3,435 nucleotides of DNA from a virus (lineage: Duplodnaviria; Heunggongvirae; Uroviricota; Caudoviricetes), in the IMG/VR virus record IMGVR_UViG_2778261688_000003. One strand, given 5' to 3'. The notes below the pieces were generated by a model. The model made no database searches. It saw only the letters and a list, made by a program, of their open reading frames with translations, and had not been told where the DNA came from. Of the stretch, positions 1 to 3,435 are shown piece by piece (within the stretch, counting starts at the first letter, position 1; the number at the start of each line of letters is the position of its first letter). The translations under genes were made by a program, and so were the position numbers.

Positions 1-489
1 ATGTTGGATGTATTTACTCCATTGTTGAAACTTTTTGCTAACGAGCCACTCGAAAGACTTATGTATACGATTATCATTTTTGGTCTCACTCTCTGGCTGA
101 TACCGAAAGAGTTTACTGTCGCATTCAATGCTTATACTGAAATACCTTGGCTCTTTCAGATTATCGTTTTTGCCTTTTCTTTCGTGGTCGCCATTTCCTT
201 CTCAAGATTGCGAGCACATATTCAAAAGCATTATTCATTACTACCAGAGCAACGAGTATTGCTTCGTTTATCTGAGAAAGAAATCGCTGTATTTAAAGAT
301 TTCCTTAAAACAGGAAATCTTATTATCACTTCTCCTTGCCGTAACCCGGTTATGAAAAAATTAGAACGGAAGGGCATCATTCAACATCAGAGTGATAGCG
401 CAAACTGTTCTTATTATCTCGTCACCGAAAAATACTCCCATTTTATGAAGTTATTCTGGAACAGCAGGAGTAGACGTTTTAATCGTTAG
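1..489 (+). CDS. sieB: Superinfection exclusion protein B (SieB-like), 162 aa, small inner-membrane protein
   Basis: Complete ORF ATG(1)..TAG(487-489) from the six-frame track. Two hydrophobic helix-length segments (MYTIIIFGLTLWLIPKEF; IPWLFQIIVFAFSFVVAISF) followed by a charged C-terminal half. Size and sequence recalled as matching Rac prophage SieB; not verified by search. Confidence 0.8.
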   Translation: MLDVFTPLLKLFANEPLERLMYTIIIFGLTLWLIPKEFTVAFNAYTEIPWLFQIIVFAFSFVVAISFSRLRAHIQKHYSLLPEQRVLLRLSEKEIAVFKDFLKTGNLIITSPCRNPVMKKLERKGIIQHQSDSANCSYYLVTEKYSHFMKLFWNSRSRRFNR

Positions 490-641
490 CTTACTGTGTG
501 CTTCTCCAACCATCGGCGCGCACCAGTTTCGGTTTTAAATGTTTTGCTTTTGGTATACGTCATGGCAGTGAACGTTCCATCCTGGTTGGGGAACACGCCG
601 CACACCAGGGATTCGTTGTTGCCGAGGTCGATTTTTTGCAT
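486..641 (-). CDS. ydaF: Small prophage protein, 51 aa (YdaF-like), function unknown
   Basis: Hand translation of the minus strand: ATG at 641..639, TAA at 488..486, product MQKIDLGNNESLVCGVFPNQDGTFTAMTYTKSKTFKTETGARRWLEKHTVS. Below the size cut-off of the supplied ORF track. The 51-aa size and position between sieB and ydaG match the Rac gene order as I recall it. Only a weak SD (GAGA). Confidence 0.6.
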   Translation of the reverse strand: MQKIDLGNNESLVCGVFPNQDGTFTAMTYTKSKTFKTETGARRWLEKHTVS

Positions 642-651
642 TTTGCGAATC

Positions 652-786
652 TCACATCTTGTTGCTACGTATAGCGACTTCTGCCTGCCAGAGATCCCAG
701 TCGTTGCTGCGTAAAGCCTGCACAGCCTGGTTGTAAGTGATACCGCAACAATCCATCAAATACTGAACTACTTCGTAATGCACCAT
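652..786 (-). CDS. ydaG: Small prophage protein, 44 aa (YdaG-like), predicted single three-helix UBA-like domain
   Basis: Hand translation of the minus strand: ATG at 786..784, TGA at 654..652, product MVHYEVVQYLMDCCGITYNQAVQALRSNDWDLWQAEVAIRSNKM. Strong SD AGGGGAGAG (revcomp of 792-800) about 6 nt upstream of the ATG. Size and position match Rac ydaG as recalled. Confidence 0.7.
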   Translation of the reverse strand: MVHYEVVQYLMDCCGITYNQAVQALRSNDWDLWQAEVAIRSNKM

Positions 787-955
787 CTTATCTCTCCCCT
801 TAACGCCGGGTGGCGGAACTAACTGCTGCACTGCAAAATTTGAATCCCGCCGTCATGTTCATACGCCTCGGGCTGGCTACTTAACCCCTTACCACTGCCT
901 GGTAACTCGAAGTATTGCCCGGCGTTCTGTGGGGCGGGGTGGGTGGTATGCTGGA

Positions 956-984
956 ACTATAGGTAATGCCTAATTGATTGTCAA
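956..984 (-). promoter_or_regulatory. PL-like leftward sigma70 promoter: -35 TTGACA (984..979), 17-nt spacer, -10 TATAGT (961..956); predicted TSS near 949
   Basis: Read directly on the minus strand: consensus -35 hexamer and a 5/6 match -10 with optimal 17-nt spacing. It points toward ydaG-ydaF and is flanked or overlapped by two palindromic operator sites. Confidence 0.5.
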
Positions 985-997
985 TAGGCTATGCCTA
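960..997. promoter_or_regulatory. OL-like operator: two palindromic sites TAGGT-AAT-GCCTA (960-972) and TAGGC-TAT-GCCTA (985-997), centres 25 bp apart
   Basis: Same 5-3-5 palindrome family as the three sites between racR and ydaS. The sites sit within the promoter spacer and directly upstream of the -35, mirroring the OR arrangement. Confidence 0.5.
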
Positions 998-1094
998 ATG
1001 TTTTGAGCGTAACCTAATAGGTGATGGCGACAGCAGAAAGTGATGGGGGGGTTAAATAACGGAATCCAGGAGTTTTCCGTCAGACCATATAAGT

Positions 1095-1571
1095 TTAAGT
1101 TCCAGTTTTTGTGATGTTCTGGCTTTTCCGTTCAGATTCAAGAGCTTTCAGATACTTACCCACTTTCATTTCCATCGCTGCTATGTAGGCGCGAACATCG
1201 TGGTCAACCCAATCTGGTTCTGTAGCATTTCCAGATAACAGGAAAGCTACAATCGCTCTTATTTCATCAGAGGCTGCTTGATAAAGGTTGTTTATATCTA
1301 AAAGTTCACTTTTTGTATCTGAATTGGTGGGGGTTGGTATGGGGTATTCGTTAAGCCCCCAATGCTCTGGACCAACAACATCAGAAAAGAAACGCCATAA
1401 TTCTGGAAGTTTATCTTTACTTATAGAGCCTTTCTTAATCCAGTCATAAATTGATGGTGGTTGGACTTTAAAGTGGCGTGCGACCTCCGCCTTTGATTTG
1501 ACGGATCCCGATGCGATTTTTTTGTTAATGGCCTGCTCTATCGCTCGGCCTAAGTCTTTACCACTAAGCAT
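1095..1571 (-). CDS. racR: Prophage repressor RacR (CI-like HTH repressor), 158 aa
   Basis: ORF from the track, minus strand, ATG at 1571..1569, TAA at 1097..1095. SD AGGAG (revcomp of 1583-1587) 11 nt upstream. N-terminal HTH-like segment (KAEVARHFKVQPPSIYDWIKKG). Divergent from a Cro-like gene across an operator-rich intergenic region. Size and sequence match RacR as recalled. Confidence 0.88.
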   Translation of the reverse strand: MLSGKDLGRAIEQAINKKIASGSVKSKAEVARHFKVQPPSIYDWIKKGSISKDKLPELWRFFSDVVGPEHWGLNEYPIPTPTNSDTKSELLDINNLYQAASDEIRAIVAFLLSGNATEPDWVDHDVRAYIAAMEMKVGKYLKALESERKSQNITKTGT

Positions 1572-1593
1572 TGCTTAATATTCTCCTATGCGC

Positions 1594-1622
1594 ATTACAT
1601 TAGGCAATCCCTACCCTTACTG
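1594..1622 (-). promoter_or_regulatory. Candidate racR maintenance promoter (PRM-like): -10 TGTAAT (1599..1594) with a poor -35 region between operator sites 1 and 2
   Basis: 5/6 -10 hexamer on the minus strand about 23 nt upstream of the racR ATG, with no recognisable -35 (CAGTAA). This would fit an activator-dependent promoter with a very short leader, but it is weakly supported. Confidence 0.25.
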
Positions 1623-1664
1623 CATTAGGCACAGCCTATTGACAATTGCGTTAGGCGTCGCCTA
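1601..1664. promoter_or_regulatory. OR-like tripartite operator: TAGGC-AAT-CCCTA (1601-1613), TAGGC-ACA-GCCTA (1626-1638), TAGGC-GTC-GCCTA (1652-1664); centre spacing 25 and 26 bp
   Basis: Three 13-bp palindromes (5-3-5) read directly from the sequence. The racR-proximal site is the most degenerate (CCCTA half-site), analogous to a weak OR3-type site. Confidence 0.6.
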
Positions 1665-1668
1665 ATAT
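1639..1668 (+). promoter_or_regulatory. PR-like rightward sigma70 promoter for ydaS-ydaT: -35 TTGACA (1639-1644), 18-nt spacer, -10 TAATAT (1663-1668)
   Basis: Consensus -35 with a 4/6 -10 that retains T at -12, A at -11 and T at -7. Operator site 3 lies in the spacer and site 2 abuts the -35. ydaS SD GGAG (1683-1686) is 8 nt before ATG 1695. Confidence 0.55.
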
Positions 1669-1694
1669 TTCTGTGTGTTTTTGGAGTTCATTCG

Positions 1695-1991
1695 ATGAAA
1701 AAAGAGAACTATTCATTCAAGCAAGCTTGTGCTGTTGTCGGTGGGCAATCAGCAATGGCTAGGCTTTTAGGTGTATCACCTCCAAGCGTAAATCAATGGA
1801 TCAAAGGGGTACGTCAATTGCCTGCCGAGAGATGTCCAGCAATTGAACGTGCAACAAGAGGTGAGGTTCTGTGCGAAGAACTTCGTCCTGATATTGACTG
1901 GTCATATTTACGACGTTCGGCATGTTGTTCGCAGAATATGTCAGTGAAGCAACTAAATGACAGTAACAAATCCTCATTTGATCATACCTGA
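1695..1991 (+). CDS. ydaS: Cro-like HTH DNA-binding protein YdaS, 98 aa
   Basis: ORF from the track, ATG 1695 to TGA 1989-1991, good SD. First gene rightward of the repressor, in the Cro position. HTH-like segment (QSAMARLLGVSPPSVNQWIKG). Size matches Rac YdaS. Confidence 0.88.
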   Translation: MKKENYSFKQACAVVGGQSAMARLLGVSPPSVNQWIKGVRQLPAERCPAIERATRGEVLCEELRPDIDWSYLRRSACCSQNMSVKQLNDSNKSSFDHT

Positions 1992-2013
1992 AACATCAAG
2001 AGGCAAATGATTC

Positions 2014-2436
2014 ATGAAAATCAAGCATGAGCACATCGAATCAGTGTTGTTTGCCCTAGCAGCCGAAAAAGGGCAGGCATGGGTAGCCAATGCAATTACT
2101 GAAGAATATCTGCGCCAGGGGGGCGGCGAATTGCCCCTGGTTCCAGGCAAGGACTGGAACAATCAGCAGAATATCTATCACCGTTGGTTGAAAGGTGAAA
2201 CGAAAACGCAAAGAGAAAAAATTCAGAAGCTGATCCCAGCAATTCTGGCAATCCTTCCGCGCGAGCTGCGTCACCGACTCTGCATCTTCGATACCCTGGA
2301 ACGCCGTGCATTACTGGCGGCGCAGGAAGCGTTAAGTACGGCAATTGATGCGCATGATGATGCAGTCCAAGCCGTTTACCGGAAAGCGCATTTCAGCGGC
2401 GGCGGTTCTTCCGACGATTCTGTCATTGTTCATTAA
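2014..2436 (+). CDS. ydaT: YdaT, 140 aa, CII-position protein of the Rac early-right operon
   Basis: ORF from the track, ATG 2014 to TAA 2434-2436. SD AAGAGG (1998-2003) 10 nt upstream. Follows ydaS after a 22-nt gap. Size and sequence match Rac YdaT as recalled. Confidence 0.88.
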   Translation: MKIKHEHIESVLFALAAEKGQAWVANAITEEYLRQGGGELPLVPGKDWNNQQNIYHRWLKGETKTQREKIQKLIPAILAILPRELRHRLCIFDTLERRALLAAQEALSTAIDAHDDAVQAVYRKAHFSGGGSSDDSVIVH

Positions 2437-2499
2437 GCAAAAGTTTCCATGCTGTTTGTGCTTATTCTAAGCCACCGGGCAGCATCATACGGGGCAATT

Positions 2500-3435
2500 A
2501 TGGCCGCATTACCATACATGCAACTGTACATAGCTGATTACCTGGCTGACACCATGCATTTGTCAGCAGAGGAGCATGGTGCGTATTTGTTGCTGATGTT
2601 CAATTACTGGCAAACAGGAAAGCCAATACCTAAAAACAGGCTGGCAAAAATTGCCCGTCTGACTAACGAGCGATGGGCTGATGTTGAACCATCCTTGCAG
2701 GAGTTTTTTTGCGATAACGGCGAGGAATGGGTGCATCTTCGGATTGAGGAAGATCTGGCATCAGTCAGGGAAAAATTAACCAAAAAATCAGCCGCAGGAA
2801 AAGCATCTGTTCAGGCCAGAAGAAGCAGAAAGGAAGCAGATGTTCAAACAAAACAAGAGAGAAATTTAACAGGTGTTCAAACAGATGTTGAAGTGGTGTT
2901 TGAACATGATGTCAACACAAAGGCAACTAATAAAGATACAGATAAAGATCTAAAAACAGATCCCCCCCTAAATCCCCCCCGGGGGAATCGAGGTGTCAAA
3001 AAGTTTGACCCTCTGGATATTACTTTGCCGAACTGGATTTCTGTCTCGCTTTGGCGTGAGTGGGTTGAATTTCGCCAGGCATTGCGAAAACCGATTCGAA
3101 CGGAGCAGGGCGCTAACGGGGCGATAAGCGGTCGCGAGACGTTACGGGCTCTGGAGGCTAAAACCGGTGCATCAAGGTATTACATAAGCACTCTCGCCAG
3201 AGAACTAGTCGCCAGTGGTGATGTTTACAATTCAGGCTACGGATTATTCCCGTCTGAGCAGGCGCGTAAAGACTGGCAAAACGCCCGCAAAAAACTATCA
3301 AGGACAAAGGTGAAGAAACCGGTTGTGGTTGATCCTGACCTTATCTGGTCATTACCAGACGGAGAAATACGCCGTTACGACAGGCGTCTGAACATAATCT
3401 GTCGCGAGTGCCTGAAGAGTGAAGTTATGCAGTGA
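2500..3435 (+). CDS. ydaU: YdaU-like DUF1376-family prophage protein (putative replication-initiator position), ending at the window edge with TGA
   Basis: Long ORF 2449..3435 in the track. The start is placed at ATG 2500 (M18) because the sequence MAALPYMQLYIADYLADT... looks like the conserved family N-terminus and a G-rich SD-like element (GGGG 2491-2494) precedes it. ATG 2449 and ATG 2518 lack an SD. Start choice is uncertain. Confidence 0.75.
   Translation: MAALPYMQLYIADYLADTMHLSAEEHGAYLLLMFNYWQTGKPIPKNRLAKIARLTNERWADVEPSLQEFFCDNGEEWVHLRIEEDLASVREKLTKKSAAGKASVQARRSRKEADVQTKQERNLTGVQTDVEVVFEHDVNTKATNKDTDKDLKTDPPLNPPRGNRGVKKFDPLDITLPNWISVSLWREWVEFRQALRKPIRTEQGANGAISGRETLRALEAKTGASRYYISTLARELVASGDVYNSGYGLFPSEQARKDWQNARKKLSRTKVKKPVVVDPDLIWSLPDGEIRRYDRRLNIICRECLKSEVMQ
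2837..2919. repeat. Iteron-like cluster inside ydaU: TGTTCAAACA direct copies (2841-2850, 2874-2883), inverted copy TGTTTGAACA (2897-2906), CAGATGTT (2837-2844, 2882-2889), degenerate copy GATGTCAACA (2908-2917)
   Basis: Read directly from the sequence. Followed by an A-rich stretch (2920-2960) and two C7 tracts. Position in the linker of the putative initiator gene resembles the arrangement of lambda ori inside gene O. Confidence 0.4.

Follow-up and report, generated by a model that had tools for sequence, protein, structure and literature searches.

RacR belongs to the small set of transcription factors that Escherichia coli K-12 cannot do without, and published accounts of its essentiality and regulon rest almost entirely on the ydaS-ydaT promoter. 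The question raised by its locus is how the genes on the other side of racR are kept silent, and what switches them on when RacR is lost. Lowering of racR expression by the Csp231I C protein raises ydaF, ydaG, ydaE, and racC ~40 fold and ydaC, kilR, and ralA >70 fold, with racR the only Rac gene to go down (PMC6765115; result on the Rac genes restated in PMC11014345). Separately, racR CRISPRi, which lowers racR mRNA 11-20 fold, gave the same leftward induction pattern, and the rising genes included recE, recT, xisR, and intR (bioRxiv 10.64898/2026.09.06.749655). RacR binding work has dealt with racR-ydaS intergenic fragments only (PMC5700373, PMC9638921): EMSA, thermal shift, and ChIP-qPCR experiments placed RacR on the 123-bp intergenic region, which contains GCCTAA/TTAGGC repeats (PMC5700373), and DNase I footprinting of the same region revealed operators O1-O3 with the consensus (T/A)TAGGC-n3-GCCTA(T/A) (PMC9638921). 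Here, we consider it highly probable that a short segment past the other end of racR (949-997 in the coordinates used below) is the early-left promoter/operator (PL/OL) of the Rac prophage and is controlled by RacR; such a repressor-controlled, OL/PL-like leftward promoter is supported by sequence, comparative, and published expression evidence, with which it fits.

The stretch of DNA analysed, hereafter the window, is 3,435 nt long. Its positions 1-3126 match E. coli K-12 MG1655 at 100% identity, within the Rac prophage, and the NC_000913.3 coordinate is the window position plus 1,418,670. From the open reading frame (ORF) list and the K-12 annotation, the window holds the immunity region of this cryptic prophage, with the following features (sources in brackets):

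1-489, plus strand: sieB (ORF list, K-12 annotation).
486-641, minus strand: ydaF (DUF1391), second gene of the predicted leftward operon (Pfam, ORF list, K-12 annotation).
652-786, minus strand: ydaG, first gene of the predicted leftward operon (ORF list, K-12 annotation, Pfam).
787-948, minus strand: predicted 5' leader of the leftward transcript, between the predicted start and ydaG, with a C-rich 5' end.
949-952, minus strand: predicted transcription start, the A at 949 or 952 (K-12 NC_000913.3 ~1,419,619-1,419,622), placed by its distance from the -10.
961..956, minus strand: PL -10 hexamer TATAGT, 5/6 (promoter scan).
960-972, no strand: OL1, a RacR-type operator, TAGGTAATGCCTA, with one mismatch to TAGGCNNNGCCTA, between the -35 and the -10.
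984..979, minus strand: PL -35 hexamer TTGACA (promoter scan).
985-997, no strand: OL2, a perfect RacR-type operator, TAGGCTATGCCTA, with no mismatch to TAGGCNNNGCCTA, abutting the PL -35 on its upstream side.
1004-1027, no strand: possible third or auxiliary element, made up of a degenerate site (1004-1016) and a conserved block (1011-1027).
1095-1571, minus strand: racR, the repressor gene, between both operator clusters (ORF list, K-12 annotation).
1565-1668, no strand: right-hand operator cluster, with sites at 1565, 1601, 1626, and 1652 and the ydaS promoter at 1639-1668 (plus strand).
1695-1991, plus strand: ydaS (ORF list, K-12 annotation).
2014-2436, plus strand: ydaT (ORF list, K-12 annotation).
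From 2449: ydaU-like ORF (ORF list).

Beyond the left edge of the window, K-12 carries kilS, kilR, ydaE, racC, recE, recT, ralR, rcbA, xisR, and intR on the ydaF strand; the induced leftward genes are all on the PL strand in the K-12 annotation, and sieB alone is opposed. Several observations on these genes are recorded here in their own right. YdaG (44 aa) scores above the Pfam threshold for the UBA-like family UBA_4 (E 3e-5; 24.1 bits, cut-off 21.8). Beyond the window, between sieB and kilR (1,418,405-1,418,502), the K-12 annotation has a small RNA, KilS, which lies on the same strand as the predicted left operon and could derive from the PL transcript; a literature search found no paper on it. 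The sequence ATGATTCATGAAAATCAA (window 2007-2024), which overlaps the ydaT start codon, fits the YdaT-box pattern with one mismatch and has already been reported (PMC11879457). The last 309 bases of the window (3127-3435) are absent from the K-12 Rac prophage and are not contiguous with the rest in K-12; in strain LR-03, a 100% match to the window, they form the 3'-terminal part of a DUF977 gene ~1.8 kb further on. Because each of the top ten window matches aligned as two pieces ~1.8 kb apart, we read the 328-aa ORF at 2449-3435 as an in-frame ydaU-DUF977 fusion, which makes the window either a deletion variant or a composite.

The preliminary description of this DNA, made from the letters alone, had claimed two palindromes of one family past racR, a consensus -35 directly adjoining one of them, and a 5/6 -10 overlapping the other, and each of these elements was recovered: OL1 and OL2 have one and zero mismatches to the operator pattern with centres 25 bp apart, TTGACA directly abuts OL2, and TATAGT, after a 17-nt spacer, shares two nucleotides with OL1. 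Both sites consist of inverted TAGGC/GCCTA half-sites with a 3-nt gap and are flanked by A/T, as the published RacR consensus demands (aTAGGTAATGCCTAa and aTAGGCTATGCCTAa), and the operator consensus that had been derived from sequence proved to be the one published for the racR-ydaS region (PMC9638921, PMC5700373). At up to two mismatches, TAGGCNNNGCCTA occurs six times in the window, where 0.90 occurrences are expected and 0/200 shuffles reached six; four of these are in the racR-ydaS cluster (1565-1664) and the other two are 960-972 and 985-997. Extending the scan to 24.5 kb spanning the whole K-12 Rac prophage returned the same six as the only sites at up to two mismatches, leaving the 960-997 pair as the sole operator-like cluster in K-12 Rac besides the racR-ydaS one. 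In the promoter scan, PL (TTGACA, 17 nt, TATAGT) was the top sigma-70 match in the window at 11/12, and the ydaS promoter (1639..1668) was second at 10/12. The module, with its promoter at 984..956, is located 98-139 nt past the racR stop and points away from the immunity region. It thus has the position past the repressor 3' end, the at least two OR-type operators, and the operators overlapping or abutting -35 and -10 that mark a lambdoid PL/OL.

Between racR and this module, directly past the racR stop, there is a hairpin on the minus strand (ACGGAA...TTCCGT, followed by TATTTAA; window 1058-1081; -11 kcal/mol, z -1.45), whose stem is kept in one prophage variant (L114) by a compensating change (ACGGGAA...TTCCCGT), and which may be where the racR transcript ends, upstream of PL.

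The left and right modules were also said to be mirror images of each other, and this stands. A repeat search returned a 35-nt inverted repeat, 83% complementary, pairing 977-1011 with 1612-1646; the two promoters have CATTAGGCAxAGCCTATTGACAAT in common at 23/24 positions; and, when both are anchored on the -35, each reads [site]-TTGACA-6 or 7 nt-[site overlapping -10]. Operators O1-O3 on the right thus have the consensus and the element order of the 960-997 pair. The two modules differ in that the right-hand cluster has four recognisable sites and also controls the racR promoters, whereas the left one has two sites, and in the promoter spacer, which is 18 nt on the right and 17 nt in PL. RacR binding has been demonstrated at the right-hand cluster by EMSA, DNase I footprinting, and ChIP-qPCR, whereas at the 960-997 pair it is predicted from sequence.

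A possible degenerate third site near 1004-1016, which the preliminary description had also raised, found no such support. The candidate has three mismatches, its ATTAGGT half alone is conserved in 40 distinct E. coli-type sequences while the right half varies, and no consistent third site was seen in relatives outside E. coli, the betaproteobacterial loci mostly having exactly two downstream sites. As a separate observation, the block at 1011-1027 (AACCTAATAGGTGATGG) is near-invariant in the 40 distinct Rac-type sequences, both of its flanks vary, and it holds two outward-facing RacR-like half-sites that form the palindrome ACCTA-A-TAGGT.

Comparative evidence carries much of the argument. 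When the 40 distinct E. coli-type sequences, a set picked by pattern and so biased, were aligned, the half-sites, the -35, and the -10 were almost invariant, and substitutions fell in the N3 spacers, in the 6-nt linker from the -35 to the second site, in the flanks, and just past the -10. Loci missed by the pattern had intact operators and single-base -35 changes (TTGATA, TTTACA, and CTGACA). These -35 variants belong to three prophages (L068, L086, and L114; equivalent to window 979-984), in which they may weaken the promoter and so tame the left operon. Beyond E. coli, the module accompanies RacR relatives of 57-75% identity in Mixta, Morganella, Proteus, Achromobacter, and Pigmentiphaga, where the flanks are otherwise unrelated; it has the form TAGGC-N3-GCCTA, TTGACA, 6 nt, TAGGC-N3-GCCTA, ATAT, and lies on the repressor strand downstream of the repressor gene, 65 to ~2700 nt past its stop. 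It is present in the Rac-like Escherichia phage vB_EcoS-683R6 and in the isolated Klebsiella phage KpF5 (repressor 56% identical), in the latter 1.4 kb downstream, past a cargo gene. The GenBank records of two phages with RacR-type repressors hold no regulatory annotation.

Across all fetched loci, with no promoter condition imposed, the downstream same-strand pair was found in 174 of the 181 loci whose repressor has a RacR-type N-terminal domain and in 0/68 loci without it, 66 of the latter 68 being relatives through the same C-terminal domain with another N-terminus. In 42 distinct modules, the gap between the two sites was always exactly 12 nt, the hexamer right past the first site was TTGACA (37/42) or a one-base variant of it (5/42), and a -10-like hexamer shared its first two bases with the end of the second site (TATAGT in 20, TAATAT in 17, TAATCT in 3, and TATAGC and TACTAT in 1 each). 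Among 80 viral contigs akin to the long Achromobacter repressor, 14 had the RacR-type N-terminal domain and 66 a different N-terminus. All 14 had three upstream sites and 12 also the downstream module, 74-2742 nt past the stop, with the remaining two contigs ending 600 and 991 nt past it, too short to assess; no such site occurred in any of the 66 with the same C-terminal domain and the other N-terminus. Given the pair in 174/181 against 0/68 loci and the fixed register of -35 and -10, we conclude that the sites go with the DNA-binding domain, and the promoter hexamers with the sites. One locus without the pair, from Klebsiella sp. R390 (L007), has a ydaS-side promoter whose -35 also looks degraded, and we treated it as a decayed remnant.

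Two further features of these loci deserve mention. Extra sequence of 1-2.7 kb separates the repressor gene from the left promoter in several relatives (L252, 4649-5803; L173; L180; L181), and in phage KpF5 the extra sequence is an annotated DUF450 gene; in lambda, rexAB occupies the position between the repressor gene and the left promoter. In phages of the Betaproteobacteria type (L009, 4001-5098; L010, 4001-4906; L171-L184), the RacR-type N-terminal domain shows ~75% identity across residues 1-77, where many columns are invariant, and it is joined to a long C-terminal part that has the LexA/CI-like motifs GDSMEP and GLSMWP and, from its sequence, resembles an S24 self-cleavage domain. These long repressors come with the same operators and promoter module as the enterobacterial RacR, whose C-terminal part is short.

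On expression, it had been claimed that ydaG, ydaF, and genes further left would be induced on RacR depletion, visible in RNA-seq as antisense signal leftward of 949; published data bear this out at the gene level, with rises of 40-70 fold (PMC6765115) and the same pattern by CRISPRi, all obtained with YdaS and YdaT present and derepressed. We propose that a near-consensus sigma-70 promoter on the minus strand, starting near 949-952, would drive ydaG and ydaF and, beyond the window, probably also kilR, ydaE, racC, recE, recT, ralR, xisR, and intR. In the lysogen, RacR dimers on 985-997 and 960-972 would keep RNA polymerase off PL by occlusion; loss of RacR would free PL and the ydaS promoter together, and the derepressed transcript would run through ydaG and ydaF and then the left arm toward xisR/intR. 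In this scheme we infer RacR occupancy of the pair, PL activity, the start site, occlusion, and how far the operon extends. Cells with a racR-IGR-ydaS deletion survive while still carrying an intact kilR (PMC5700373), so a derepressed PL alone would not be lethal via KilR, and Rho-dependent termination has been reported to limit kil expression (PMC4150792).

The predicted leader offers some context for how far such a transcript might reach. Its first 40 nt contain 19 C and 6 G. The C-rich, G-poor stretch of the first ~30 nt (window 921-949, minus strand; AUACCACCCACCCCGCCCCACAGAACGCC) resembles a Rho loading site, and this start of the leader may be related to the reported Rho/NusG silencing of kil. 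Folding of the leader gave no significant RNA structure (z -1.6), an Rfam search of the whole window at E <= 1 returned nothing in 780-1100, and a boxA-like CGCTCTT was absent from the leader by eye. The antitermination feature of PL/OL was not seen either: no N-like antiterminator and no nut/put element was recognised in the leader. Elements of this sort (nutL or put) are typical in lambda and HK022 leaders but not universal. That none was recognised here counts against PL transcription reaching the distal genes.

Other ways of switching on the leftward genes have to be set against a RacR-repressed PL. They could be reached by read-through from the racR promoters, with Rho normally terminating in or after racR and the palindromes auxiliary or without a promoter role; a Rho-dependent terminator inside racR, trac, read from the racR promoter, has been proposed to silence kil, and cells die when it fails (PMC4150792). 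With racR transcription blocked by C protein or CRISPRi, however, racR mRNA goes down while ydaG, ydaF, kilR, and recE go up at least 40 fold, which argues against this source of transcription, and read-through gives no reason for a conserved -35 and -10 in fixed register with operators; we think it very unlikely. Induction might instead be indirect, with the Cro-like YdaS or the CII-like YdaT activating leftward transcription and the RacR-like sites as bystanders, an idea that draws on the activation by YdaT of the reverse racR promoter and of host rcsA (PMC11879457) and on the presence of ydaS and ydaT in all published induction data. It is very improbable in our judgement: the sole match to the YdaT box near 940-1030 has three mismatches (171/200 shuffles gave at least as many matches), a promoter at 11/12 to consensus should need no activator, and, across phages, the operators occur together with the RacR-type DNA-binding domain.

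The palindromes themselves also admit readings other than promoter control. As an RNA hairpin they could form an intrinsic terminator on the plus strand for rightward transcription from sieB, and a terminator scan does flag 985-997 followed by ATGTTTTGAG, while the plus-strand RNA of 950-1003 has a folding energy of -17.8 kcal/mol (z -3.65). Pairing is inevitable, however, between two copies of one palindrome, the scan flagged the identical operator at 1652-1664 in the same way, the stem of a single site has five pairs, and the U run is 4 nt with a 3-nt gap before it; the relatives, moreover, keep the sites and the promoter hexamers without the T run on the opposite strand. We thus rejected an intrinsic terminator at 985-997 as a by-product of the palindrome whose T run is unconserved in relatives, and regard this reading as exceedingly improbable. 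A reading that we hold possible, if doubtful, is that the pair is mainly a distant auxiliary operator, through which RacR loops to the right-hand cluster ~640 bp off and tightens the ydaS and racR promoters, local repression being secondary. In every complete relative two operator clusters flank the repressor gene, 0.6-3.8 kb apart, and octamers are formed by lambda CI and by CP-933P PaaR2, looping being established for lambda (as summarised in PMC8630535). Looping is nonetheless compatible with promoter control, and looping alone needs no consensus -35 and -10 in fixed register with the sites.

The RacR-repressed PL that we prefer has clear counterparts. In lambda, with equivalents in P22, 434, and HK022, OL/PL lies beyond the repressor gene from OR/PR, repeats the OR-type operators, and transcribes an early-left operon that includes kil, recombination, and xis/int genes. 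Rac resembles this design in that PL is across the repressor gene from the right cluster, points away from it, and repeats the right-cluster operators, and in that the predicted left operon would include kil, recombination, and xis/int genes, with sieB on the opposite strand inside it. Where lambda has three operators, the Rac left module has two clear ones; the lambda operator is a 17-mer and that of Rac the 13-bp TAGGC-N3-GCCTA; RacR, unlike the lambda repressor, is short and has no LexA-type cleavage domain; and Rac, unlike lambda, has no recognised N gene or nut site, its first left genes being ydaG and ydaF. The closest experimentally tested case is PL933P of CP-933P, a cryptic prophage of E. 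coli O157:H7 with the repressor PaaR2, whereas Rac PL is predicted here from sequence. PL933P, with OL1-OL3, was found by analogy with lambda, and in reporter assays was controlled by PaaR2 and YdaS (PMC8630535). The CP-933P operators are 18-bp repeats with GTTTAGTAA half-sites at three sites, against two sites of a different sequence in Rac, and CP-933P has a toxin-antitoxin pair co-transcribed with the repressor. Lemire et al. place RacR among the Gifsy-type repressors, as candidates for antirepressor control (PMC3121763).

A PL/OL in Rac is the expected, textbook lambdoid design and would not surprise a lambda specialist. The searchable literature, including the RacR papers, describes neither RacR sites nor a promoter upstream of ydaG; older sbcA/kil papers may describe them. 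Provided that those papers lack a description, a Rac PL/OL closes a real gap in the picture of this much-studied E. coli regulator. It would tell direct RacR targets apart from YdaS/YdaT effects and gives a precise site for reporter and mutational work.

If PL is directly repressed by RacR, this would account in a simple way for the 40-70 fold rise of ydaFG, kilR, recET, and xisR/intR after RacR loss and would explain Rac excision and the activation of the FtsZ inhibitor KilR and of RecET. Through a left promoter under two predicted RacR sites, one repressor would silence the killing, recombination, and excision genes too. More tentatively, the observations might be read together as a RacR loop of ~640 bp around racR (960-997 to 1565-1664), a master promoter for the left arm, and a portable cassette linked to the DNA-binding domain. 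If this combined reading were true, PL alone would drive KilR, RecET (the classical sbcA phenotype), and XisR/IntR excision, and the cassette [site]-TTGACA-N6-[site]-(TA)ATAT would travel with a compact 73-residue DNA-binding domain, joined in Enterobacteria to a short C-terminal part, probably under antirepressor control, and in Betaproteobacteria to a putative S24 self-cleaving part that would make the repressor SOS-inducible.
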